From contig ML978125.1 of the NCBI GenBank assembly GCA_010015805.1, positions 62,001 through 126,000 of the forward strand: a DNA stretch of 64,000 nucleotides, read 5' to 3'. The stretch comes from Rhizodiscina lignyota (lineage: Eukaryota). The notes beneath the pieces were generated by a model. That model had not been told where the DNA came from. It saw nothing but the letters and a program-made list of their open reading frames with translations, and ran no database searches. The position numbers and the translations under genes are program-made. Numbering within the stretch: position 1 is the first letter of the stretch; the number at the start of each line of letters is the position of its first letter. Below are positions 15,894 through 56,591 of this stretch, piece by piece.

Positions 15894-17715
15894 CTAAGCT
15901 GGAGCCGCACTATCACGACGCTCCTTTCGCTCGTTGAAACGAAGCTTCAACGGGGCCAACCCAAGCGTGAAGTGATCTCTCGTCTTATACAAAAGATCTC
16001 TACCATCCTCGCCGGGGGCAAAATCGACGTCGAAATAGTGCAACAGCTTGGCGACGGTCGTTCGGATCTCCAACATTGCAAGCGGTCGTCCAATGCAGCC
16101 GTAAACGCCTGTTGAACAGACAAGTCAGGTGCTTGCTCGTGAGTTGAGAGATGAGTACTAACCTTGTGAGAATGGGGAAAATGCTGTTCTGTTCGTAACC
16201 ATATTAGTCTTTTCATACCAGCGCTCCGGCACAAAGCCCTGCGGATCCTTGTAGCATATGTCGCTTCGACCGATGACGTATTGGGGACAGAAGACGTCAG
16301 CATTGCCAGGGATGTGCTTGCTGCCAATCTCAATCCCCTCTGGCGGCGTGCTGCGGTTGATCGCTGATGGCACAGGAGGATGGAGCCGCAGTGTCTCAAA
16401 GATACAACCGTTGAGATAGTCATTGTTGGCGATATCGCTATTCTCCACGTTACCCTCAGAATCGGTGTACGGTTTGAGCTCTCTGCGGAGGCGTTGAACA
16501 AGACTTGGCTCCGCAGCAAGATGATAGAACAGGTGCGTGAGTGTTGCTGCAGTGGTGTCGGAGCCGGCAACGATGACCAAGCGGCTATCACCCTGGAGAT
16601 ACGTGAGCTCCAAGCCTTCTGGCTCGCGCAAGCTACCTTTCTCTTGAAAAGGTTCCAATAATGCGGATGTAATGTCGGGGATTTTGGCGCCTTTCTGTAC
16701 GGATTCAGCTCTATGGCGGATTATTAGACAGGATACTTGCCTCCATTCGCTTCTGCATCTGCTCGGAACAGTAATTGATGAATTTCCAATAGTCCTTGGC
16801 AGCTCCTGGAATCGCGACAATCACTCTAAAGACCCACGGAGGGAGCTTCGCGGCCATCGGTTCCATCCCAGCGTTTAGCAGGGCGATAGCCCAATGCTCT
16901 TCTCCCTTCTCCAACATGTCAAACGATTCTGATATACGCCGGACCCATCAGTCAAGCGTGACAATGTTGTTTCGACAAGAAAGCTCACCTCCAAAAGCTA
17001 GATCGCCCATGACGTCGTATGAGAAGTAATTAAACCAGTCAGATACGTTGACGGGTTGGACTCCGCCAAACGCTCTCAGCTGTTCTACAAGCCTGTTCTC
17101 ATACGGCTTCATGCGCTCCTCGTACCCTCGCAAGGCCTTGTCGCTAAAGGCAGGACTCCAGATCTTCCGTCGCTGGTCGTGCATGTCTCGTTTGCGAGAG
17201 GTGTGCAGGCTCGTGAGTGGATAGTCTTGGTCGTACCATGGTCCTTTGGAACACTTGGTACCAAGTCCGTAGACCTTTTGAGGGCCGTCAGGATGGATGA
17301 TGGAGAGTGTGTTCGGTCCTATTCTCAGGAACTGTCCGTACTTCTCATGCAGCTTCTCCAGCTTGTACGGCGCGTCGGCGTTGGTCGTAACTCGAGTAGG
17401 CCACCAAAAGTTTGACAAGCGAGCCATGAATGGCCCAGGGAAGTTCCGCAAGGGGTGGAAGAATGCACGGTACAGGAGTGCACTGCCATTTACGCTCAAA
17501 AGGTAGAAGAAGGATGCGGAAGAAACAACAGAGAAGGCTTGAGGGATTTCGTAACCGGCGAGGCGGGAGAGTGCAAACACAGCAGCGCCATTGAGCAACA
17601 AGAAGACTTGAAGATAGAGGACGCCGTGCATATGGTGTTCCCCTCGCTTGAAGTAGAGCAAATGAGAAAGTACGCCGATGTTGGCGGCTAAAGCATTGAT
17701 GAAGATGGACGACAT
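15894..17715 (-). CDS. Cytochrome P450 monooxygenase
   Basis: N-terminal TM and FPGP, I-helix AGSDTT, ETLRLHPP, PERW, heme motif PFSQG|VYGCIG across an intron; ORFs 16948-17904, 16711-16917, 16158-16820, 15894-16076. Confidence 0.93.
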
Positions 17716-18430
17716 GATGAACGTGGTTGTGAGGAATAGCGCTAGAGTTGTGCAAGGCGACAACTTACTTCGGCGATAGAATATATTCTTGTAGTTATTG
17801 CTCAGGATACGCCCGCACCATGTCTGCCGTCGGCTGCAGCATACCTCGAGACTGCAAGCCACTGCCATTCCGTTGATTGCGGGGAATCCGGGGCAAACCA
17901 CCATGTTTTAGCGGCCGCAGCACATTGTCCTCGGAAGCGATCCCCCAGCCCCTTTCAGAAAGGAAAGTATGTCTTCCGGTCCCGATTTGAAGCCTATTGG
18001 GCCTTTGTGTGTCCTCGGTCTCCGCCTTGTGGCTTAACTGGGCCGCGGAAACCCCACGTTCTAGCTCTTGCATGATCCATTGTGCCGAGAAAGCTACTTG
18101 CGGCGTCGTGCCAAATCGAATACTCTTTGCTTGGACGGGTTTATTGAAGATAGTAAATAATCATTGATGAAAGGTGGCTGTTGATGTGGATATAGTGTAT
18201 GTAATAAGGATTGTTGTCCATCCTTTCAAGTTCGGCCTGTAAGATTTTAGCGCCACTCACCTCTGATTGGATGACATAATCGACGAAAAAGCGTTCCTCC
18301 GATCGTGATACCAAACCACTGCGGCTCTTCTTAATCAATTGTGAAAATTAGTACGTGACCGTTTCGGATCACATGAAAATTAGCAAAAAAAAAGAAGAAA
18401 ACAGAAAATTGGCTTGTGCAATTAAAATGC

Positions 18431-18438
18431 AAAAAAAA
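18431..18438 (-). terminator. RNA polymerase III oligo-T terminator
   Basis: T8 run on the minus strand 11 nt after the discriminator A; a second T run near 18385-18393. Confidence 0.75.
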
Positions 18439-18508
18439 GAAGACTGTAATGCATCGGCCGGGAATCGAACCCGGAGCTGGCGGAGACAGATGGCAACCAC
18501 CAATTTTA

Positions 18509-18560
18509 CTAAGCAGTAGGGTTAGAATGTTGATTGGATTAAGGAAGTGGAGAGTCGTAC
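18509..18560 (-). other. Spliceosomal-type intron 2 in tRNA-Gly (52 nt, after the D-loop GG)
   Basis: GTACGA donor, TTCTAAC branch site (18527-18521), TAG acceptor 12 nt downstream. Confidence 0.85.
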
Positions 18561-18569
18561 CCATTAAAC

Positions 18570-18625
18570 CTATTTAGGAAGTTAGCATTTATTAATTTGA
18601 ATGCGGAGACTTGTGCTGCTCGTAC
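18570..18625 (-). other. Spliceosomal-type intron 1 in tRNA-Gly (56 nt, between tRNA positions 9 and 10)
   Basis: GTACGA donor, TGCTAAC branch site (18587-18581), TAG acceptor 11 nt downstream. Confidence 0.85.
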
Positions 18626-18663
18626 CACCGATGCTGGATTGTTGGAGGCTCAAACTTAAGAAT

Positions 18664-18671
18664 TATTTATA
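18664..18671 (-). promoter_or_regulatory. TATA box upstream of the tRNA gene
   Basis: TATAAATA on the minus strand at -37 to -30 relative to the mature tRNA 5' end. Confidence 0.6.
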
Positions 18672-20194
18672 ATAGGAAAACTCTTCCCACCCAACCGCGC
18701 CGATCTGCATCCTCGCTCATTTGCTTGCGTGGCACTTGGTGTGGATCGCAGCAATGGGAGTTGTCTGTAAGTTAAAAGATACTTCTTAATTATATTTATA
18801 TATGCTAATGCATTTATCGCTGTTTGTGCATCGCAGTATTTAGGAGCGTTCATCTTCTCCTTAAGTTATATTCATAATGAAAGATTCCAGGCCCTCAGAG
18901 CCGTCCCGCTACTCGTGCAAACCTCGTATGCGCAGAAGGGCGAACATGCTCCCTATAGTGCTCTAAGGCCTGTGTGGTACTCTTGAGTGACGTCTTTTTG
19001 TCTATATTGTATACAAATTGACTTGAAATGAGGCTGCAGCGTCGACTCACGCCCTTACTTCCGCGAACGACGACAACAATGCGAAACTTAACTAGCTCTA
19101 TGCACAAAAATCCTCCTCAATCCAGTGCATCCAATATCGCGTCAAGTCCGGCTCTACGACCTCGAAGCCTTTCGTCGGACGGGCAAAAACGTGTCAATGC
19201 CTTTCTTATCAGACGCGAGGTCATGGGAGGGCCAACGAGATACGAGGCAGCCAGCTGTGGAACATACCAGTTACCAAACTTCTGCCAACGGTAAACGATC
19301 CGACCTCGAGCGGGAGCTCCGTTAGTATGATTTGACTAGACATAATGCTCTTCCTCCACCACGGTCGAAACGCACACAGCAGCAGCACATACGATTACCA
19401 ACTCCCCCGAACAGCTCGAAGGCAGGCCGCTCGAAGCAGCATTCACCCACATCTCTCACGACAGAGGCCGGGCCTTCTCGAATGGTATGTTCTACCCAAC
19501 TGCTAGGCTCGGAATTAGATAAAGCCGCTCATCCTCACACTTATCCCTATGGTCATCCTCACGCACGTCCATCAAGAGCTACGAGCCATATCCAGGCGCT
19601 GAGAGACCGTACACCGCTATCAGAAACGGCATGACCAGGACAAGAAGCAAGAGCTTCCGGATACAATGTAAGCTCTACTCTTGAACAACTCTAGGTGAAT
19701 CTCGAAAACATTCAATGGTAGTTACAGACGAACAAAGAGAATATATTCCTAATGCGGACTCGCTGGCAGGCTGGGCTCATAGCTATCAACGAAGAAGTCA
19801 AAGCTTTAGAACGAGTATCACGATCGTTGGTAAACAGTGAGGTTTCGATGTACCTGGTAAGAAAGCTCGTCAATGGAAAGATGCGAAGGGTTCCAGGGGC
19901 GAGAGGGTAGCGGACTCTGCACCTGATGATATGTCGGGGAATTCAGGTGAAGGAGTTCCAGAAAAAGTAGAGAGCCGCTCGCCGGCCGAAACATGCCTTG
20001 ACAAATCGCCTCATGTTCGTCACAAGGGATATCAGGGAGAAGGATCGGCTTAGTATGGGACGAAATATATTCACTCTCTACCATCTCAGTAATGCATTGT
20101 AAATTTCTTGAGTCGGTGAAATTACTCGTAGCAAAGTTTTTGAAAGCTACTAAGGCCTAGCTCATTTGCAATTTGAAGTAGCAAACCATACCAA

Positions 20195-20300
20195 TGCAAG
20201 CCGTCATGCAAGCCGTCATGCAAACCGCCATCTAACCCGTCATGCAAATCGTCCCCCAACCCGCCAATAGCCCGCCATGCAACCCGCCAATAGCCACGCA
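20195..20300. repeat. Degenerate ~12-bp tandem repeat
   Basis: gcaagccgtcat gcaagccgtcat gcaaaccgccat ctaacccgtcat gcaaatcgtccc caacccgccaat..., directly 3' of the 20310 ORF stop. Confidence 0.75.
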
Positions 20301-21292: not shown

Positions 21293-23947
21293 CGGCGAAT
21301 GGAGTGGTCGAACGTGCGCCTTGCGGCACCATCGGAGACGATATCCAAGCACATGCGCAAGAAGTCCGCGGACAACAGACTGGGCGGGCTAATGACAACG
21401 CTGAAAAAGCCGCCATATCTCAGGAGTCGAGCAGGCATTGCGACACTCCAGGCATCTCCATAAAGAATGACGAGGCACATGGACTTCCTTCCAACTCTGC
21501 CACTGTTGATGCACTTCGTGAGGTCGAGCCGGGCCAGAAGCGTCCGGCCACAACGCCGACGTCATTTGACTTCGCAAAATATCGTAGTATCCATCGAGAG
21601 AATCGTACGTTGAATCATGACGCATGATCGCATAAGTGCTAATTGTTCTTCAGCAAATGTTGCCCCCCTTTGTGAGGCCCCGGCCGTAGTTACCCGGCTT
21701 GCCCAGGTGCCGTCTCAGGAGGCACCACCAGATCCGCGAACTGGTATTGCCGCCCTCATACAACTAGATGCGACTCTTGTTGCGGTGGACCTCGAAGTGT
21801 GGGATGACAACCGGACTCCGCATCTAACCCACGTCCTCGAAGTCGGTTGTGTGGTATTACGCACTAAACTGATCCGGAAGGCGCCTAACGAGCGGGTCTC
21901 CAAGCTCATGGGCGAGTCCGACCGGCATCATTTCATCATAGCGGAGAATATAAATGACAAGCAAATACACGTTCCGCGAGCCATTTATGACTTTCAGCAC
22001 GGCAGATCCGAGACCTTGCCGGAGGCCGAAGTGGCCGCTAAACTTCGTCAAATCCTCTTACCAGACCGTGGACCAGTTATCCTCGTTACTCACGGTGGTA
22101 CAAACGATATCGGGTGGCTTCGAGATATGGATGTCGTCCTTCCAGCAGACATGCCCAGGCTAGACACACAAGACTTCGGAGGTAGAATCAGCTTGGAGAA
22201 CTTGTGCGAACGGCTCCAGATACCACTAGACTTTCCATACAACGCGGGCAACGATGCTTATGCAACGTTGGGAGCACTACTGGTCATGGCTGGCCGAACC
22301 GATCGCCCTTCAAGATCCATTAACGAGAAGGTCTCCTCGATGCTGCCACTCCTCAACGCGACAGCACCTCCGCCATCAGGCTCGGTTGCTAATGTGACCT
22401 CTGGCAAGGGCATGGAAAAAGCGACAGCACCTCCTCCGCCAACAGACTTGGTTGCCAACGTAACCTCTGGCAAGGGCAAGAAAAAAGCGATAGCAGGCCC
22501 CCCTGATCAGCGAAGCTCTTTCCAAGACCAATATTTGAGAGCCAGTATGGGCACGGATCCCTACTCAGCCGAGTTACTTTCCCTCCGGAGCAAACACATG
22601 TTTTTGGCCCACGCAGAGGAGACCTTTTGCCTCTTTCCTGACGGACTCATCAACATCACCAGCGTGCCAGTGTTCTGGAGAAAGGGTTTCGACAAACAGA
22701 ACGCTCCGCGGCTCTTTCCGTTGGATACGAAGGACGTCAGAGAACCACGACGGATCAGAGTGATTGGAGATACGACCCCGAATTGGAACGAACGACCAAT
22801 TGGAAGGGCATTCGCCGTCTTCGAAGCCCTCGATAAAGTCAGGGAGGGCGTAGAAATTCTAGACTTCGAGAACTTTATGGGAGCCTCCACCTATTGGATC
22901 CAATACTTTCCATGGAAGTCGGTGTTCCCCAAGCTATCCAAACTTGGGTTCTACCAGTGTCCGAGATTGGGCTTCGATATGTTCTTTGATGAAGATGTAG
23001 TTCAACGCGTCCTTGGCCTCAAGGAGGAAGGTGTTGAAGTCGATTACGACTTCCACGACTTTGCGTGCCTTGGCCAATGGACTGCAGAGCAGTCTCAAGC
23101 GCGTGTTCTCTTCGGAGTCCTTGCGAAGCATACACCACAGATCACTCAAGTACCTTGGCTACTGCAGGAAGACACGGTCTTCACTCGACACCTACAATCC
23201 ATAATGGAAGGTCAAGCTCCTCCTCTTTGCCACGCATATCCTAGGGAGACGCAGAGCAGTTTGACCGGCCAGCACATACTCTCATGGCTCCGTGATCGGA
23301 CGACGGCCGCAGACTCAAAGAACGCCGAGAATTTCAAAGTTAGCGACTTCGAGTTCGCCCAGACGCTTAGAGAAATTGGCCCATTGACGCAGAAAACGCT
23401 CCTCCAGTATGAAAAAAAAATCTTCTACTGCAATGACAAAGGGCACAAAGCCGCAATGATTGGCTTTGGTTTCTCGAAGACCAGGTTGAGGAGTAGGAAG
23501 AATGTAGAAGATTCAAAGCTCTTCGAGGATCCCAGCGAGTTCCACAGCCTGGATGACAATATGGTCTGCGCGGGTTGCGACCGTTGGCAGAGCTGCGCTG
23601 ACGCTCTTCTGGGGAACCACAGGGGCGTATGGGTTCAGAAGGCCGCGATCGTTGACGACGCCCTGAGGGAACTGGCCGACACACAGCGTCAATCGGAGTC
23701 TTCACCGGAACAACGCGTCGCCGAGCTGATCGAAATTTGCACCACGAAAGATAGTGATCTTGAGAAATTCAAGAGGCTAAAGCAGGGGCATTCCCCAGTC
23801 GAGAAGGCCAATGGCGCCCGGTACGGGCTAATCGATGCGCTGGCGATCCCGTCCGAGTCGAAAGAGGTCTGGTTGAGTAGTAAGGAATTCCATGAAGGCG
23901 CTGAGATGGAGTTGCCATCCAACTATCGCTTCATTGAAAGGAAGTAG
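21293..23947 (+). CDS. DEDD 3'-5' exonuclease (Gfd2/YDR514C/QIP-like) domain fused to a large unknown C-terminal region
   Basis: VAVDLEVW..EVG..HFII..ILVTHGGTNDIGWL..LDTQ..SLENLC..YNAGNDAYATL in a 776-codon ORF. A frame-consistent intron at 21605-21653 joins the upstream ORF 21280-21627. True start not resolved. Confidence 0.75.
22358..22495 (+). repeat. In-frame tandem duplication (63/66 bp) in the linker of the exonuclease fusion
   Basis: ATAPPPSGSVANVTSGKGMEK / ATAPPPPTDLVANVTSGKGKKK / AIAGPP. Confidence 0.85.
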
Positions 23948-28342: not shown

Positions 28343-29284
28343 CTATGAATACAGCCTCGAAAAGCCTCCTTTAGGAGGTTGTAGCCAATTCTTCCCATCA
28401 TACTCATTCTCGCCTTCTATCATGTGGAACGTATAGATGAACCTACTCTTGCCGCTTGTATTCTTCTCGCTCTTGTGCAGTATATTGCCATGAATGAGCA
28501 CGAGCGTGCCGGCTTTGACCTCTCCAATTGTGTATTCTTCATCCTTGTCCTCGACGTTGGAGTCAAGACCGACAGGAAACTGCGCACCACTATTGTCCTC
28601 AAAGTCTGTGCCCGTGCCTTTTCTTATGAACCTACTCTTGATAGGTGCCCGCTTGTGACTTCCTCTCGCAAAGCTGAGGCATCCGTTCTCTATCGTCGCA
28701 TCCTCGAGGGCGTACCAGAAGCCAATCGCACTCGGCGGGTTGGTATATAGAAATGTACTGTCCTGGTGCGGTGGCACACGCCCTCCAATCTCTGGCTGTT
28801 TGCATATGACCATGCTCTGCAGAACTCTTGGATCCCTGAACCCCAATTTCTGCGCAATGGCAGCGTTTCTTGGAGACAGTGAGATGCGCCTGAACCCCGG
28901 ACTCAGTTCGTGCAGATAGTGCCCGATCTTGTTGATCGCCCTCTCTTTCGGCTTGATCAATTCCCCACTGGGCGAAAAGGCGTCTTCCTCGAAGAAGAAG
29001 CGCACTTTGTCTCCGCTCGTGAGAAAGTACTCATCGCCGACATGCGCGTTGCCATTGTCGCCAGTCGAAAACTTGGTCATGGGATGCGTGTCTAGGGAGA
29101 ACTCTGCGAGCATCCGATGGGTCTCGGAGAGCAGTTCTGATACTGTGGCTGGGTCGAGCGCGTCTGGAATGAGCAAATAGCCATTTTCGTCCCAGAACTT
29201 GAGCTGCTCTGACGATAAGCCGTCGCTGTCAGCTACCGGAGCGGATGTGGACGACGGTGGGGGAGAAACACGGGAGGGTGGCAT
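28343..29284 (-). CDS. Phytanoyl-CoA dioxygenase family (PHYHD1-like) Fe(II)/2OG dioxygenase
   Basis: INKIGHYLH, QSMVICKQPEIGG..PHQDSTF (HxD), IHGNILH, SRFIYTFH. Confidence 0.92.
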   Translation of the reverse strand: MPPSRVSPPPSSTSAPVADSDGLSSEQLKFWDENGYLLIPDALDPATVSELLSETHRMLAEFSLDTHPMTKFSTGDNGNAHVGDEYFLTSGDKVRFFFEEDAFSPSGELIKPKERAINKIGHYLHELSPGFRRISLSPRNAAIAQKLGFRDPRVLQSMVICKQPEIGGRVPPHQDSTFLYTNPPSAIGFWYALEDATIENGCLSFARGSHKRAPIKSRFIRKGTGTDFEDNSGAQFPVGLDSNVEDKDEEYTIGEVKAGTLVLIHGNILHKSEKNTSGKSRFIYTFHMIEGENEYDGKNWLQPPKGGFSRLYS

Positions 29285-30996
29285 CTCTCAGCGGCTCTGG
29301 CGCCTGGAGCGGGGGATGTGGAAACGGAGTGGGAGGTTGAGGTCGTTTCAAAGTATTTGTAGGGATCGTAGGGCAGGTCGGAGATGCGCTCGCGTGAGAG
29401 AGACGAAGGTGAAACGGGGCAGAAGTTCCCTTGGCATGCCGCACACGACGGATTTGGGTGGGATAGTACCCAGTTTTAGGTTGGGTAGGCGCCTAGAATT
29501 GACTGATCCGCGGGTACCTCTTAGATCCCGCATGCAAGTTCCTCACATTATTGGCCGATTAGGCTTTCTAGTGGAGAATTTGCACAGCATTTGAATTGCC
29601 AATAAGTGTGCCATATATAAATATCATGCTAATAGGCTTAAATGGATGGAATATGTTTGGATCCGACATCAAATAGCTCTACTCTCGTCTTCCAAGTTGT
29701 ACGGTCTAACTACGGAATCCACGATCGAGTTCCACACATAGTCTATGACTAGGTGCGATAGAGTCCCCATGTAACTTGAACAGAAGCTCTAATCGCTTAA
29801 CATACCATCACTCCTATGGCTCCAGTAAGATCATTCCACTGAACTTCGAGCTTGAGATTGATAGATGCAGGAGAACCAATAGGAATAGTCATCGACAGAA
29901 GAGAAGTTCAAAATTTAGTTGCCTTGCTCTCAGTTCGCATCACGTACTTGAATAATCAAGTTCAAGAACGGGCCCTAGATCGCCCCGTAATCTGAACTTT
30001 ATGGATATGTGCAAAGCCATTTCAGACCATTTTCTTTTGATAAAGTTGGTAAGAAAGGAGGTTGGGAGTTAAAGAGGATCTCGTAGACGATAGGATAGCA
30101 TGTACGACACATTTAACGCAGATAATTACTCTTGAAAAACATGCCCTGAGATAGCTCACGACAAGAAAACGTTCGAGTACAAATTAAAGAAGCATGCGAT
30201 GGAAGTGCTTATTGTGGACGGGAGGCAGAGATTTAAAGCTGTGATTTTATCGTAAGCGACCAGGGCAGCCAGAGTGGACTTCAAGCTTTGCGGGACAAGA
30301 GAACCTTCTTGACTTCTACACATCCATCACAGAAATGCATAGTAGATCTTCGCATACGCATCGCTTTCGCATTCATTCTGTATCCAATTGCATCTACAAT
30401 CGCCTCGACCTGCCAATTGCTCGAAACGAGAGCGTGCTGAGACAGGACTCAACACATGCCACCGTGGCCGGAGCGCGCATCATTTCTTGGGAAACATCCA
30501 TTGACTTATCAGAGCCCTCTGGTACGTGCAGCTGTACGTACACAGCTCTTTCGGCTTCTCTTAAAGCAGGCTAATTTCAACATGCGCTCACTATCATGGG
30601 GCTGCTCTCAAACATTTCCGTGACAGGGGCACACGAGCAGCGCAAGGATACATGCCAATCCGCTACAACCTGCAACGTGCAATCGTCTCGCAATCACCTC
30701 CCTGTCATCAGCTCAATTGCTACAGTAGCCACTCTTTTGCTGTTCTTCTATTCTTTCTAGACCTCAGTCTTCCCTTATCCGCTGCCTGGTGCATTCGGAT
30801 GAAGGACGCTTGCATAGCCGGGAACTACATCACCTTGCGTACACCCTTTTTGTCTCCCTTCATTTCACGCTTCTATCCTTTGTAATAAGGACAATTTCTC
30901 CTTCTCGAATCCTACATTTCATCGTCCTTGCGATCGTTACTGTCGCTTGATGCCACAGTGTCGCCCCTTTGCCGGTATACGAACCTAACAGCCAGA

Positions 30997-32735
30997 ATGC
31001 TTTCACTCGCTGTGCGCATCCTGACAAACCCATTCATTCTTATATCATTATTCATAACCACGATAATTTCTATAATATCATGGGCCTGCAAACCGACACT
31101 CGTTCCAAAAGAGATACCTTGGGTTGGAAAGCCGCGGAGTAGAATCTTCCCACGGACGACAGCGTCACTATTATGCTTCTTTAATGTGCGAAAGATCTTC
31201 GATGAGGGATATAGAAAAGTATAGATCCATTGAAATGACTGAGTCATCTTGGCACTAACTGAATGATCCAGTACTCTCAATATGGCAAGGCATACATTTA
31301 CCCGTCTTACTCTGGTCCTCCGGAGGTCATCATACCTCGATGCGACCTTCCATGGCTGCTGGACCAGCCAGAAACAGTCGTTAGCTCCGAGGCGCTCCAA
31401 CGAGACTTAATGGAAGGCCAATACGCCTTCACCGACCCACAGCTACTCCAATTCCCATTTCACAGTCACATCTTGGTACGATACCTCACCCGCCGAGTTG
31501 CCTGCCTACTCCCCGATATTTGGGACGAGCTACAGCATGCTATCAGCACAACATGGGGCTTCAACAACGTAGAATGGCGAGATATCTGTGTTTGGGATAA
31601 CATGATGTCTATCATTGCCTCAACCTCGAACCGTATGTTTGTCGGGAAACCGCTTTGTCGCAACGAGGACTACCTCTCCAACGCCATCGCATTCGCAAAC
31701 GACGTCACTCTCAGCGTAACAGCGCTATCCCTCGTCCCATCATTCCTCAAACCTCTGCTTGGACCGTTGATCACACTTCCAAACCATTACCACTACCACC
31801 GAACCGCCCGACACACCCTCCCCATCATCAAAGACCGCCTCATGCACATGCGCCGCAAGCAATTTGATCCAACGTACAAATGGACGGAACCAAACGACTA
31901 CATCACCTGGCATATCCAGCAAGCAATGTCAGAAAACATTGGCGAGGAACTCGATCCGATCAGAATAGCCCGCCGGTTAATGCCCATCAATTTCGCAGCA
32001 ATCCACACAACCGCGCTCACAATCACGAACGCAATCTTTGACATTTTCAGTGGACCCAACGCGTCCTTCGTCGTCGAATCGCTACGTGAGGAAGCTGAGC
32101 GGGTGTATGCAGAATGCAATGGACACTGGACGAAAGACGCCGCAGCCAAATTGCTACGCCTCGATTCTGCACTGCGAGAGAGTATGCGTTTGAGCGGATT
32201 CTTGACGCGCAGCGTATTCCGCAAAGTCGTGTCCCCGGATGGACTGACGCATCCGCGCGAAGGCTGGACAATACCGCAGGGCGCGTGGGTGGCTGTAGAT
32301 GTTATTAGTACGCACCACGATGACTCGATCTATGATTTTGCTGGCGGCTATGATCCCTTCCGCTTCTCTCGACCGAGAGAAGAAGCTTTATCTACAACAT
32401 CTTCCGCATCTAACACTCCGCCACCATCAACGCCGCAAGACTCAACTTGCGATTCCGCTTCAGACAAGGACGAGGTGCTCTGGCTCAAGAACCAAGGAAT
32501 GGTTAGCACTTCAGACACCTTTCTCGGTTTTGGTGCAGGCAGGCATTCATGCCCTGGCCGTTTCTTCGTTGCACATGAACTGAAGATGTTGCTTGTGTAT
32601 ATCCTGATAAATTACGATATTGAGCCAATGGCGCAACGTCCGTCGAATATGTGGTTCGGCACGAACATCTTACCAGACATGAAGGCTACCATCAGAGTAC
32701 GAAGAAGAAAAGGTGCGAGTCCAGAGGATGTTTGA
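30997..32735 (+). CDS. Cytochrome P450 (ent-kaurene oxidase-like group)
   Basis: TM exon from 30997, intron near 31220-31271, NFAAIHTT, DSALRESMR, YDPFRF, FGAGRHSCPGRFF. Confidence 0.93.
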
Positions 32736-52571: not shown

Positions 52572-53918
52572 TCAAGTCTTGATATTCAGCACAAATCCAG
52601 ACTTCATGACTCGAACACAAACATAGATCAATCCAGCAGCGCATGCCGTTACACCTCCATAAACCCACAGGCCCGTCCAATGTAACGGATCGACGGTACC
52701 AAGAATGGCACCAGCACCCGCGCCACCAGCCAACAAGCCGAGTCCGCCAATTGCAAAGCCCTGGCCAATGCGAGTGCCGATCATGGATTTGTTCTCCGTT
52801 AGTACGCGGAAGCATACAGGTGGCAGCGCGACGACGACACCGCTGAAAAATCCCGTGACGGCGGCTTCGATAATCATTCCCGCCGCGTTGTGTACGCCCA
52901 GCAGACACAGCATCGTGACGCCCAGTAGCATTGTGAACGGTGCTATAGTATTGAACACGCCGATGCGGTCCGACAGTGCGTTAGGCAGGATCCGCCCCAG
53001 GATCGACCCGGCGTTGAAGATGGCCGCTGTGTAGAATGCCAGCGAGGTATCGGTGAAGCCACGGTCCGCTGGGTAGAATGAGATGTAGAAGAGGAGCGCG
53101 GTCTGGCCAATGAAGCAGACCAGCACACCCAGCGTGAACAGCATGAACGGCGCATCACGGAACGCGGACCAGTCTACTATGGCGCGCGGCTTCGGGACGC
53201 GCACCCGCATGCGTAACGCGGCTAATGGGACCATGAAGGTCGCTAGGGCGATGAAGCCGATGCAGCGAACAGCCCAGGGAAAGCCTATACGCGAGATGAG
53301 TCGATAGAGCACGATGGGATAGATGACACCGCCGAGCGAGGAGCCGGAGGACGCGATGCCAATGGCGAGTCCAATGCGCGTACTGAACCAAGTCGGAATC
53401 AGCGACACAGTGGGCACGAAGAGCAAGCCGGCGCCGATGCCAACGCAGAAGGCCTGCGCCAAGAGCGCCTGCCAGTATTCGGTGCACAAGGAGAGCATCA
53501 TGTGACCAAAAACGATCATAAAGCTACCGGTGATGATGAGAAGGCGAAGGTAGCCCCTGTCGAAGATGGGTCCAGCGACGACGCCGGTAAGCTGAAGCAG
53601 GAAGCATTGGATGGAGCCAATCCAGGAGATGTCGGCGGAGGAGGCGTCGAAGAGCTCACCGGACTCGTAGTAGGTTTGGAAGGCGCTGAAGGCGCTGACC
53701 AAGCCCCACGTATTAAAGAAGAGCACAAAACCTGCAGCGACCTGGAGCCATGCGAAAAGTCCGCCATCTGGAGGAGGTGGAGGCCCCCTGGTATGATTCT
53801 CGAGTGCGGGTTGCTGCTCGGTGTCGGTCTCGGATGGGCTCCCTTTGGGGGGATCATTGTGAAGATTCATTGGCGTCATCTTTTCTTTGGGCACATCTTC
53901 AGCGACTTGAGGAGGCAT
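52572..53918 (-). CDS. MFS monocarboxylate (MCT/Mch)-type transporter
   Basis: PPPDGGLFAWLQV..FNTWG, ISWIGSIQ, GPIFDRG, GSSLGG, GRILP; intronless. Confidence 0.92.
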   Translation of the reverse strand: MPPQVAEDVPKEKMTPMNLHNDPPKGSPSETDTEQQPALENHTRGPPPPPDGGLFAWLQVAAGFVLFFNTWGLVSAFSAFQTYYESGELFDASSADISWIGSIQCFLLQLTGVVAGPIFDRGYLRLLIITGSFMIVFGHMMLSLCTEYWQALLAQAFCVGIGAGLLFVPTVSLIPTWFSTRIGLAIGIASSGSSLGGVIYPIVLYRLISRIGFPWAVRCIGFIALATFMVPLAALRMRVRVPKPRAIVDWSAFRDAPFMLFTLGVLVCFIGQTALLFYISFYPADRGFTDTSLAFYTAAIFNAGSILGRILPNALSDRIGVFNTIAPFTMLLGVTMLCLLGVHNAAGMIIEAAVTGFFSGVVVALPPVCFRVLTENKSMIGTRIGQGFAIGGLGLLAGGAGAGAILGTVDPLHWTGLWVYGGVTACAAGLIYVCVRVMKSGFVLNIKT

Positions 53919-54267
53919 ATTGACAGCAGAATAAAGAAAGCAGATGACGGCTGATAAATGTGGTTGTTTGAGAATTTTGACGTATATACAGACCTTCTTA
54001 AGTACCAACTAGTGTGTATTCCGCCGAAATGGGGGAAAGGCCGCACGCCACATTACATCCAAGGCATGGAGTGTTCAGTGACGGGATAACTACAGTACGA
54101 GAGAATTTGCCGACTTGTGGATCTTCAAGGGGCTTTTCGCCCGTGACGGCGGAACTAAATTTGCCAAGCCTTCGGACCTGGATACATCATCTACGACCTC
54201 CATAACCTCACACCCATTTTCTCCGCCGCGTAGGAGGCTGATCAATATTCATTGACGACGGCTAGCC

Positions 54268-56591
54268 ATGATTGACGTACTAGATGGAGAGCTAGATGGC
54301 GTCTCAATCGACCAAGAGATGCCAGCTAAGCGCAGGAAGGTTCGCAAAGGGACTCGATCTTGCTGGGAATGCAAACGACGGAAGATCAGATGCATATTCG
54401 CGTCGTCCCACGATGCCGTCTGCCTCGGCTGCCAGCGGCGGCGTTCGACTTGTGTCAGTCAGGATATGCCGGAAGAGTTGTCTCCGGCAAGAAAAGGCAA
54501 CCGGTATCTCGCGGAGCGGATCAAAAGAGTAGAAGATTGCATGAAAGACTTTCTTGCTAGCAAACATGTCGACGGGATAAGCCATACTGAGGAAGAGGCA
54601 CGGCGGGACAGTCGTTTAAACCCTGATACCGCAACTGCTCGCCCTGATGATTCAGAGTCCTCAACAATTCGAGTTCCTCTCACGCAAAAAGAGGTACTTG
54701 AACCACTCATATCCTGAATTCTTTCCTAATAGCTACTTAGAGCCTCGGAGACCCTGTACTAAATTCATCACCCCTCACACCAAAGTCGCAAGATGTTTCA
54801 GATCAAGCAGAGACCGAAACAGTCCTCCGTCACTTGTTTGCAGCCTTTCCCTCCCAAGAGGATACCAAGATCCTGCTCAAAGAGAGCTCTAGAACGTCAC
54901 GCTACAACGATTTGATCAACACTCAGTCGCATAGCAAGTTGACCCCCGAAACGCTAGCGGCATCGTACCCCGAAGCTGAACTTCCTCGTCGCAACGCCCA
55001 CCCAGTCATTTTGGCCAGATGTATGCTCACACTTGCCATAACTCTCCAAATACCGAGTAAAGACAAGTTCCTCGGCCTTTCTGAACCGCAGAACACAATC
55101 ATGCGTCGTTTGGTGACGGCTGCTAGGACTTGGGTAACGACCAAGGAGGAGATGCAGGGCACGGTCGAGAGTCTGATTTGCACCATTCTAGAGGCTGTAT
55201 TTGAGACAAACTGTGGCAACCTTCGACGGGCATGGGCTGTCTATCGTAGGGCAATAACTGCCGCTCAGTTGATGGGCCTTCACCGCTCTCCCATCCCTGC
55301 GCTGAAACACATCGACCGCGAGATTGATGCTAAGCCAGAGATTATGTGGTTTCGCATCGTGTACATGGACCGTTATCTCAGTCTACTACTTGGCCTTCCT
55401 CAGGGCACATCTGATAAGAGCATGGGAGCCATGTCGGTTTGGCAGAACGAACCACCCCTTGGCAGATTCGAGCGCCTACTCACGGTTATTGCATCTCGCA
55501 TCTTGGAACGCAACGAGCGTGATTTTGCCCCTAGCGAACTCATGACAACCCAATCCATCGATGCAGAACTATTGAAAGTGTCGAAGAGCATGCCGGCAAG
55601 CTTTTGGCGTCCAGCGAATTTCCAGGGCCTCACCGCAGGAGAGCCCGATGCCTTCTTGGAAACTCTACGCCTAGGAGCCCAGGTCTACTACTATAGCCTG
55701 TTGATTCAACTCCATCTACCATATATGATGCTAATCAGCAACAATATCGAGCACGAGTATTCCAAGATTACTTGCGTCAATGCTGGTCGGGAAATATTGA
55801 TGCGCTTTATCGCTCACCGAACCTTCAACCCCGTTTCATCCTGCTCGCGCCCTGTAGACTTCTTTGCGCTCTTGGCTGCAATGACGCTTCTACTTGCTCA
55901 TCTCAACACTCATTATCATCGAGAAGCGAGCAATTTCCTGGCCCACCAGCGCTTGAGCGACCGCGCCATGCTAGACCAAGTCCTGGAGATAATGGAAGTG
56001 ATGAGTAACGTCAACGAGGACGTAATATCTACAAGCAGCGCCAAACTGGTCCGACGGTTACTCGCTATGGAGACGGACGCAGCCGAAGGAAGCAACTATA
56101 TCGCTAGAAGCGTAAGAGGAGATGACAGTGTGCAGGAGGACAACGAGGACAATGAGGAAGGTGAGGAGCTTCGCTTACGTATCCCGTATCTCGGTGTCGT
56201 CAAGATTACTCGACAGGCTCCCATTTCTCGAGAATCTCCGCAAGGGAATGCAACATCTCGGCCGTATCAGCCTTCCCAGGCCGAGCTCTTACCGCCTATA
56301 GATGAACAACCGCTTAGCCATCTGAATGACATGGCCGAAGGCTCCACGATTTCGGGGAATATGCTGGCATCGGAACGGTCGAATGCACAGTTACAAGCAT
56401 CCTTGTATGAGCAGTCCATGCTGCAATATCCCAGCTCCAACCATGACAACATCGTTTTGCAGCCACCTGTTGGACCCCCTCCCGTGGCGGCTGGCGTCGA
56501 TGACTGGGTCTTCCAGGGAGTCGACATGGCGTTCTTCGACAGCTTGATGAGAGGCACGACTCGCGTGGATGATTTTGGGATAGAGCAGTGA
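54268..56591 (+). CDS. Zn(II)2Cys6 transcription factor with fungal TF middle region
   Basis: RKGTRSCWECKRRKIRC..CLGCQRRRSTC; intron from about 54694; ORF 54834-56591 with GNLRRAW, DRYLSLLLGLP, WVFQGVDMAFFDSL. Confidence 0.92.

Follow-up and report, generated by a model that had tools for sequence, protein, structure and literature searches.

A gene for tRNA-Gly(GCC) lies on the minus strand of the DNA analysed here (a stretch of 64,000 nucleotides, hereafter the window), with nucleotide 1 of the tRNA at 18634 and the discriminator base A73 at 18450. Its 185-nt body is interrupted by three insertions of 56, 52, and 6 nt, and it is accompanied by a TATA element upstream and by runs of T downstream. 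Read 5' to 3' along the minus strand, the locus comprises the following features.

18664..18671, minus strand: TATAAATA (TATA), at -37..-30 from tRNA nt 1
18635..18663, minus strand: spacer and 5' leader from TATA to tRNA nt 1, which on sequence alone would contain the transcription start site
18626..18634, minus strand: exon 1, 9 nt, tRNA nt 1-9 (5' strand of the acceptor stem, U8, and G9)
18570..18625, minus strand: insertion 1, 56 nt, spliceosomal in type, between tRNA nt 9 and 10
18561..18569, minus strand: exon 2, 9 nt, GTTTAATGG, tRNA nt 10-19, the A-box core
18509..18560, minus strand: insertion 2, 52 nt, spliceosomal in type, after G19
18491..18508, minus strand: exon 3a, tRNA nt 20-37, holding the anticodon GCC
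18485..18490, minus strand: 6-nt extra element TCTGTC at tRNA position 37/38
18450..18484, minus strand: exon 3b, tRNA nt 38-73, which includes the B box GGTTCGATTCC (18471-18461)
18431..18438, minus strand: T8 run resembling a Pol III terminator, 11 nt after A73
18385..18393, minus strand: second run, T9, a possible back-up terminator within a T-rich tract

When all three insertions are taken out by script, the remaining 71 nt fold into a cloverleaf with stems of 7/4/5/5 bp, which ARAGORN identifies as tRNA-Gly(gcc). Every one of its 21 stem pairs forms (19 Watson-Crick and 2 G-U), the anticodon is GCC, and the variable loop measures 4 nt. The last part of the gene, composed of exon 3a, the 6-nt extra, and exon 3b, spans 59 nt (18508-18450); if this part is left whole and the two large insertions alone are removed, ARAGORN still calls a tRNA-Gly(GCC), now of 77 nt, in which the anticodon stem consists of two G-C and three G-U pairs and the variable region extends to 10 nt. 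On the untouched genomic sequence of the whole 64-kb window the same program reported no tRNA gene, and Rfam at its gathering score returned no match. A sensitive Rfam scan (E-value mode, 501 bases) gave four weak matches, none of them to the tRNA model, the best over exon 3 being to a tRNA-like model, whose 18.6 bits fall short of the cut-off of 42.5. Metagenome scans were also negative, both with exon 1 plus its donor and exon 2 with its splice sites (0 matches) and with the anticodon arm plus B box (0 matches). A DNA sequencing data set, compared with 18300-18800 at 80% likeness, yielded a single contig of 70,024 nt, identical to the locus and probably the source assembly.

Several features of the surrounding DNA were recorded in passing. 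Pfam families assigned to 16109-17715, 28346-29287, 31186-32735, 52575-54008, and 54741-56588 comprise two cytochrome P450s, a PhyH-type dioxygenase, an MFS transporter, and a fungal-specific transcription factor, and the gene content of the window resembles that of a fungal secondary-metabolism neighbourhood. An open frame of 777 aa on the plus strand (21614-23944) has a DEDDh exonuclease-like domain at residues 55-225, followed by a long tail with no family match. The Pfam families (cytochrome P450, fungal transcription factor, MFS transporter) are those of a filamentous ascomycete, and the homologues of one window protein agree with this: among named taxa the highest identities, 75-76%, are to Dothideomycetes, with Lecanoromycetes at 71-72%, and one further match reaches 87%. 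In the gap between two genes (20194-20289), a 12-nt unit (ATGCAAGCCGTC-like) is repeated in tandem about eight times, with 70-80% matches.

The three insertions

Both large insertions begin with the donor GTACGA and end with a TAG acceptor. Each also contains the branch-point sequence CTAAC, at 18585-18581 in insertion 1 and at 18525-18521 in insertion 2, which puts the branch A 12 and 13 nt, respectively, ahead of the insertion's end. The frequency of such a combination was estimated by screening every 52- and 56-nt segment of the window, on both strands, for a loose triad consisting of a GTRNGN donor, CTRAY located 8-20 nt from the end, and YAG. Only 5 of 255,784 segments passed, and both insertions were among the five; the strict form of the triad (GTANGN plus CTAAC) was passed by three segments, again including both insertions. 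Given this rarity, and the fact that each insertion boundary allows only two registers, chance is excluded as an explanation for the splice signals, and judged by these signals the two large insertions are spliceosomal in type (U2-type GT-AG).

Comparison introns were collected from the window itself as GT...AG segments with a CTRAY branch that join two frames, each open for 50 codons. These are heuristic calls on merged open reading frames, not annotation; they yielded 48 candidates in 33 clusters, from which 13 were kept by a fixed rule. The 13 heuristic introns are 46-70 nt long and have their branch point 7-27 nt from the end, mostly at 9-14 nt, ranges into which the lengths (56 and 52 nt) and branch distances of the two insertions fit. 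Their donors are of the GTRNGT kind, with T at +6 in 11 of the 13, and GTACGA, with its A at +6, is absent among them. The donors of both insertions are weaker than those of the window introns.

No further copy of either large insertion was found within the 64-kb window. Plain shuffling of the sequences never reached the alignment score observed between insertions 1 and 2 (0 of 500); when the shuffling left the splice signals in place, an equally good alignment arose in 320 of 1000 cases, and the idea that the two are paralogues was rejected. Introner-like elements are among the phenomena reported from fungi (PMC11282704, in the portion consulted); here, the lack of other copies in the window and the dissimilarity of the two insertions beyond their signals leave no sign of an active element family. 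A predicted long-range helix, in which the 5' end of insertion 1 pairs with the 3' end of its partner (-9.4 kcal/mol, pair probabilities 0.71-0.93), was likewise discarded as a special feature, 220 of 1730 window 17-mers pairing equally well.

The third insertion, TCTGTC, is absent from the sequence-only reading with which this locus was first described. It sits exactly at 37/38, the canonical site of nuclear tRNA introns, and once it is left out the anticodon arm has a clean stem (GGTGG/CCGCC) and a 7-nt loop. To our knowledge, no fungal tRNA-type intron as short as 6 nt has been described. The element is either a miniature tRNA-type intron or a lesion. In the former case U32 could pair with the intron G located three bases before the intron end, in the manner of anticodon-intron pairs.

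The longest run of T is two in each large insertion and three in the whole 185-nt body, in agreement with the original description, according to which neither intron has a run of four or more. Taken as a sign of selection, this lack of T runs does not survive comparison with the 13 heuristic introns, against which it is not significant. Three of the 13 contain T4 or longer and seven have no run above two; from this small set, the probability of finding no T4 in either of two introns is about 0.6, and that of finding no run above two in either is about 0.3. Two introns free of T4 are thus the expected outcome and carry no weight.

Promoter signals and their geometry

The remaining signals around the gene were also correctly identified from the start. 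The consensus of the B box is GGTTCGANTCC, and the intact box that had been claimed is present as an exact GGTTCGATTCC at 18471-18461. It is the single exact match in the window, where six matches with at most one mismatch compare with 3.97 expected; scanned for other hidden tRNA genes, the window gave no second exact B box. The T8 terminator occupies 18438-18431 and leaves a trailer of 11 nt from A73. Runs of T8 occur at three places in the window, counting both strands, and two of these lie directly behind the tRNA gene on its sense strand. The TATA element was likewise recovered where it had been placed (-37..-30; 18671-18664 of the minus strand). TATAAATA is found four times in the window against 0.76 expected, a count reached by 2 of 100 shuffles, and its position agrees with the upstream motif at -34..-28 of S. 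pombe and Arabidopsis thaliana tRNA genes (reported in the consulted part of PMC11547032). The flanking signals of the tRNA gene are not background.

The T-rich tract behind the tRNA (18383-18438, minus strand) contains the word TTTTTTTTGC twice, 46 nt apart. These two copies could be a main and a back-up terminator; alternatively, the tract could be the pyrimidine-rich promoter region of the P450 gene located downstream on the same strand.

The A box is a more complicated matter. Its consensus is given as TRGYnnARBGG at +8..+18 (PMC11547032, as far as consulted), and a contiguous box at that position is missing, the DNA at +8 scoring 6 of the 9 specified positions and the core lying 56 bp downstream. 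The sequence AGGTTTAATGG, which consists of the acceptor AG of insertion 1 (18571-18570) and exon 2, matches 8 of the 9, T8 being replaced by the A of the acceptor; so high a score is attained by 186 of the 127,980 11-mers in the window (0.15%). TGGTACGAGCA, composed of exon 1 and the donor, matches 6 of 9, a score reached by 8,929 of 127,980 window 11-mers (7%), and 11 of the 230 11-mers at the locus score at least 6. The description of the A box as broken is therefore too strong: its core, nt 10-19, is whole within exon 2. Of the two surrogate A boxes that had been suggested, AGGTTTAATGG is nothing other than the tRNA's own core, and the score of TGGTACGAGCA is too common to be meaningful. 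Such resemblances are in any case a product of the insertion site. A GT...AG element placed in TG|GT automatically recreates TGGT on its left and AGGT on its right, the donor GT duplicating tRNA nt 10-11 and the acceptor G duplicating nt 9, and look-alikes that arise automatically are no evidence of selection.

A second Box-A-like 11-mer, also scoring 8 of 9, is located at 18501-18511 on the minus strand, 29 bp ahead of the B box, where the acceptor of insertion 2 meets the first bases of the last exon. With 0.15% of 11-mers reaching this score and about 230 positions scanned, it may be a chance match.

The distances between the elements set limits on how they might be used. A spacer of 89 bp separates the exon-2 A box from the B box, which falls inside the natural range of 31-93 bp, whereas the spacer measured from the pseudo-A box at +8 is 145 bp, beyond that range (range from PMC11724288, in the sections seen). 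The same sections report that TFIIIC binds the B box with nanomolar and the A box with only micromolar affinity, and that mutation of four conserved A-box bases leaves TFIIIC still able to bind stably (PMC11724288). Measured between first bases, TATA and the exon-2 A box are 100 bp apart, 56 bp more than they would be without intron 1. Here lies a geometric problem that was missed in the sequence-only reading: intron 1 displaces the A box from the TATA element. If the tauA "ruler" (PMC11724288, same sections) is applied to the exon-2 A box, TFIIIB would come to lie on exon 1 or on the beginning of insertion 1, so that transcripts would start within insertion 1 and lack exon 1. If TATA instead sets the position of TFIIIB, tauA can only reach the weak 6/9 site at +8, 145 bp from the B box. 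The promoter layout, as read from these distances, is compatible with Pol III, given either some flexibility or a dominant TATA.

A working gene, an inactivated copy, or a neighbour's signals

The best explanation of the locus, held tentatively and somewhat short of even confidence, is that it is a live nuclear tRNA-Gly(GCC) gene, probably transcribed by Pol III from a full set of type-2 Pol III signals, whose transcript would be spliced by the spliceosome. On this account two introns of spliceosomal type entered the D arm of a tRNA-Gly(GCC) gene in a Dothideomycete-like ascomycete, and a 6-nt element entered at 37/38. TFIIIC would be anchored by the exact B box and TFIIIB would assemble on the TATA element at -37..-30, so that transcription would begin a few bases ahead of nt 1; Pol III would then traverse the 185-nt body, meeting no T run above three, and halt at T8. 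The spliceosome would subsequently take out the two D-arm introns, as it does with the Pol III-made U6 precursor of fission yeast, and the tRNA splicing endonuclease would remove the 6-nt element. The promoter features would be an inheritance from an uninterrupted ancestor that permits transcription by Pol III. The fuller form of this account, a working tRNA gene that needs both the spliceosome and the tRNA endonuclease and in which TATA chooses the start while the A box is displaced by intron 1, is one that we put forward with more reserve, as possible and somewhat doubtful.

The sequence-only reading went further and took the promoter layout to show that the locus is under selection to stay transcribable by Pol III. 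This does not follow. TATA, B box, and terminator would be kept by any tRNA gene that worked until recently, so that the inherited signals, which a recently dead copy would retain as well, indicate compatibility with Pol III and not selection. A better argument than the promoter can be drawn from inside the gene, where three rare insertions have broken none of the 21 stem pairs, all splice signals have been kept, and the 6-nt element falls at 37/38. These intact pairs and signals seem easier to explain by purifying selection, the insertions being tolerated as they would be spliced out. Against a live gene stand the weak donors, an exon 2 of only 9 nt, the unusual shortness of a 6-nt tRNA intron, the stretched distance between TATA and A box, and the blindness of tRNA finders.

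There is a substantial possibility, again below even, that the locus is instead a tRNA-Gly copy from which tRNA is no longer made, having been inactivated not long ago by a 6-nt insertion together with insertions resembling introns, which could be introner-like elements or introns that were reverse-spliced and then copied back into the DNA. TATA, B box, T8, and stems would then persist for the reason that too little time has elapsed. Genes for tRNA-Gly(GCC) are normally multi-copy, so a dead copy could be carried without cost. Such a history would agree with the failure of ARAGORN and Rfam to find a tRNA, with the poor anticodon arm that remains when only the large insertions are removed (two G-C and three G-U pairs, 10-nt variable region), with the 56 bp by which the TATA-to-A-box geometry is stretched, and with the weak donors of both insertions; the arguments for selection in the sequence-only reading have all failed testing, and introner-like elements do occur in fungi by report (PMC11282704, portion consulted). 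It is less easily reconciled with the state of the sequence itself. Three independent rare insertions that disrupt 0 of 21 stem pairs are unlikely for neutral sequence, all three splice signals are retained in both large insertions, and the 6-nt extra is found exactly at 37/38, the site of real tRNA introns. Nor is there any sign of an active element family, as the large insertions have no repeats in the window and are unlike each other beyond their signals.

Since spliceosome recruitment is normally coupled to Pol II and the insertions are spliceosomal in type, the tRNA might be made from a Pol II precursor, with TATAAATA, a perfect TATA of the Pol II type, directing a capped non-coding transcript that is spliced co-transcriptionally and from which RNase P and RNase Z release the tRNA. 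Pieces resembling tRNAs are cut from some Pol II transcripts, and the acceptor stem and T arm form in the predicted fold of the precursor, so that end-processing enzymes could act on it. We nevertheless regard this route as unlikely: a T8 run at 11 nt and an exact B box belong to Pol III genes and would serve no purpose in a Pol II unit, the minus strand around the locus shows neither an open reading frame nor a further exon, and we know of no natural nuclear tRNA that is made by Pol II. The U6 gene of S. pombe, moreover, shows that fungal splicing can do without Pol II (PMC5855946, as far as consulted).

The TATA element might instead serve a Pol II gene that runs away from the tRNA on the plus strand, in which case its position at -37..-30 would be a coincidence. 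The plus-strand reading of the element is another TATA-like word, a second TATAAATA is present 122 bp further on (18793-18800) in a region locally rich in such words, and an ATG at 18755 is followed by an intron-like stretch, GTAAGT...TGCTAAT...CAG (18755-18837, plus strand). Splicing from this ATG across GTAAGT...CAG yields only a short peptide when read by eye, and a gene at 18755-18837 is doubtful. A single plus-strand frame of at least 100 aa exists in 18700-19800 (102 aa, 19326-19634), and the position of the element fits the upstream tRNA motif of other TATA-using fungi and plants. Ownership by a neighbour therefore seems very improbable.

If the gene is live, it would mean that structured Pol III transcripts other than its own snRNA are open to the spliceosome, that introns can enter tRNA genes without killing them, and that a TATA box can rescue the choice of start site in a gene with a displaced internal promoter; how polymerase identity and splicing are linked would become directly testable in a fungus. 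If it is dead, the locus offers a rare snapshot of intron-like sequences entering a gene that does not encode mRNA, and a warning that tRNA finders miss such loci.

Relation to known split genes and Pol III promoters

The locus shares with ordinary tRNA genes of S. pombe and Arabidopsis an AT-rich upstream motif, a B box, and a T-run terminator. It is unlike them in that Box A is separated by 56 bp from nt 8-9 and by 52 bp from nt 20 onward, and in that standard finders fail on it. A disturbed internal promoter is also seen among tRNA genes with multiple or ectopic introns, which have been described from Cyanidioschyzon merolae, nucleomorphs, and archaea and which, like the gene considered here, carry several non-canonical introns, including in the D arm (PMC3728597 and PMC3978253, in the parts consulted). 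There, the tRNA endonuclease acts on introns with a bulge-helix-bulge structure, and the pair in tRNA-Gly is set apart from them by its GT...CTAAC...TAG signals and by a size within the range of the heuristic window introns.

Among Pol III promoters, the yeast U6 gene had been named as the model for a layout of TATA plus B box. In S. cerevisiae SNR6 the A and B blocks are about 200 bp apart, compared with a normal distance of 30-90 bp (PMC5855946, portion consulted). The comparison holds only if the pseudo-A box at +8 is used, in which case a TATA element and a B block (bound by TFIIIC in SNR6) far from the A block, here at 145 bp, would be common to both genes; it breaks down for the exon-2 A box. 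SNR6 has its A block at the normal distance from TATA and its B block behind the terminator, whereas at the tRNA-Gly locus a good A box has been shifted downstream by 56 bp and the B box keeps its usual location within the gene.

A closer parallel is the U6 gene of S. pombe, which is transcribed by Pol III and carries an intron taken out by the spliceosome (PMC5855946, portion consulted). This gene and other fungal U6 genes with mRNA-type introns resemble the tRNA-Gly locus in combining an intron of spliceosomal type with an upstream TATA and with A and B blocks. The host differs, however, being a tRNA and not an RNA of the spliceosome's active site, and it has two introns 9 nt apart, neither of which carries a promoter block. 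As the host is not an active-site RNA, the origin by reverse splicing in place that has been proposed for U6 is not directly applicable.

Spliceosomal introns have also been reported in U1, U2, U5, and rRNA genes, and the determinants of their insertion are called unclear by reviewers (PMC5855946, portion consulted). Full-text literature searches, judged by titles and the openings of abstracts, produced no description of spliceosomal introns in tRNA genes. The spliceosomal introns in the rRNA genes of ascomycetes (Bhattacharya et al., 2000, as cited in the consulted portion of PMC5855946) differ from the present pair in that they belong to another RNA and to a gene transcribed by Pol I; like the tRNA-Gly insertions, they are spliceosomal in type, reside in a gene that is not transcribed by Pol II, and come from ascomycete lineages near this one.
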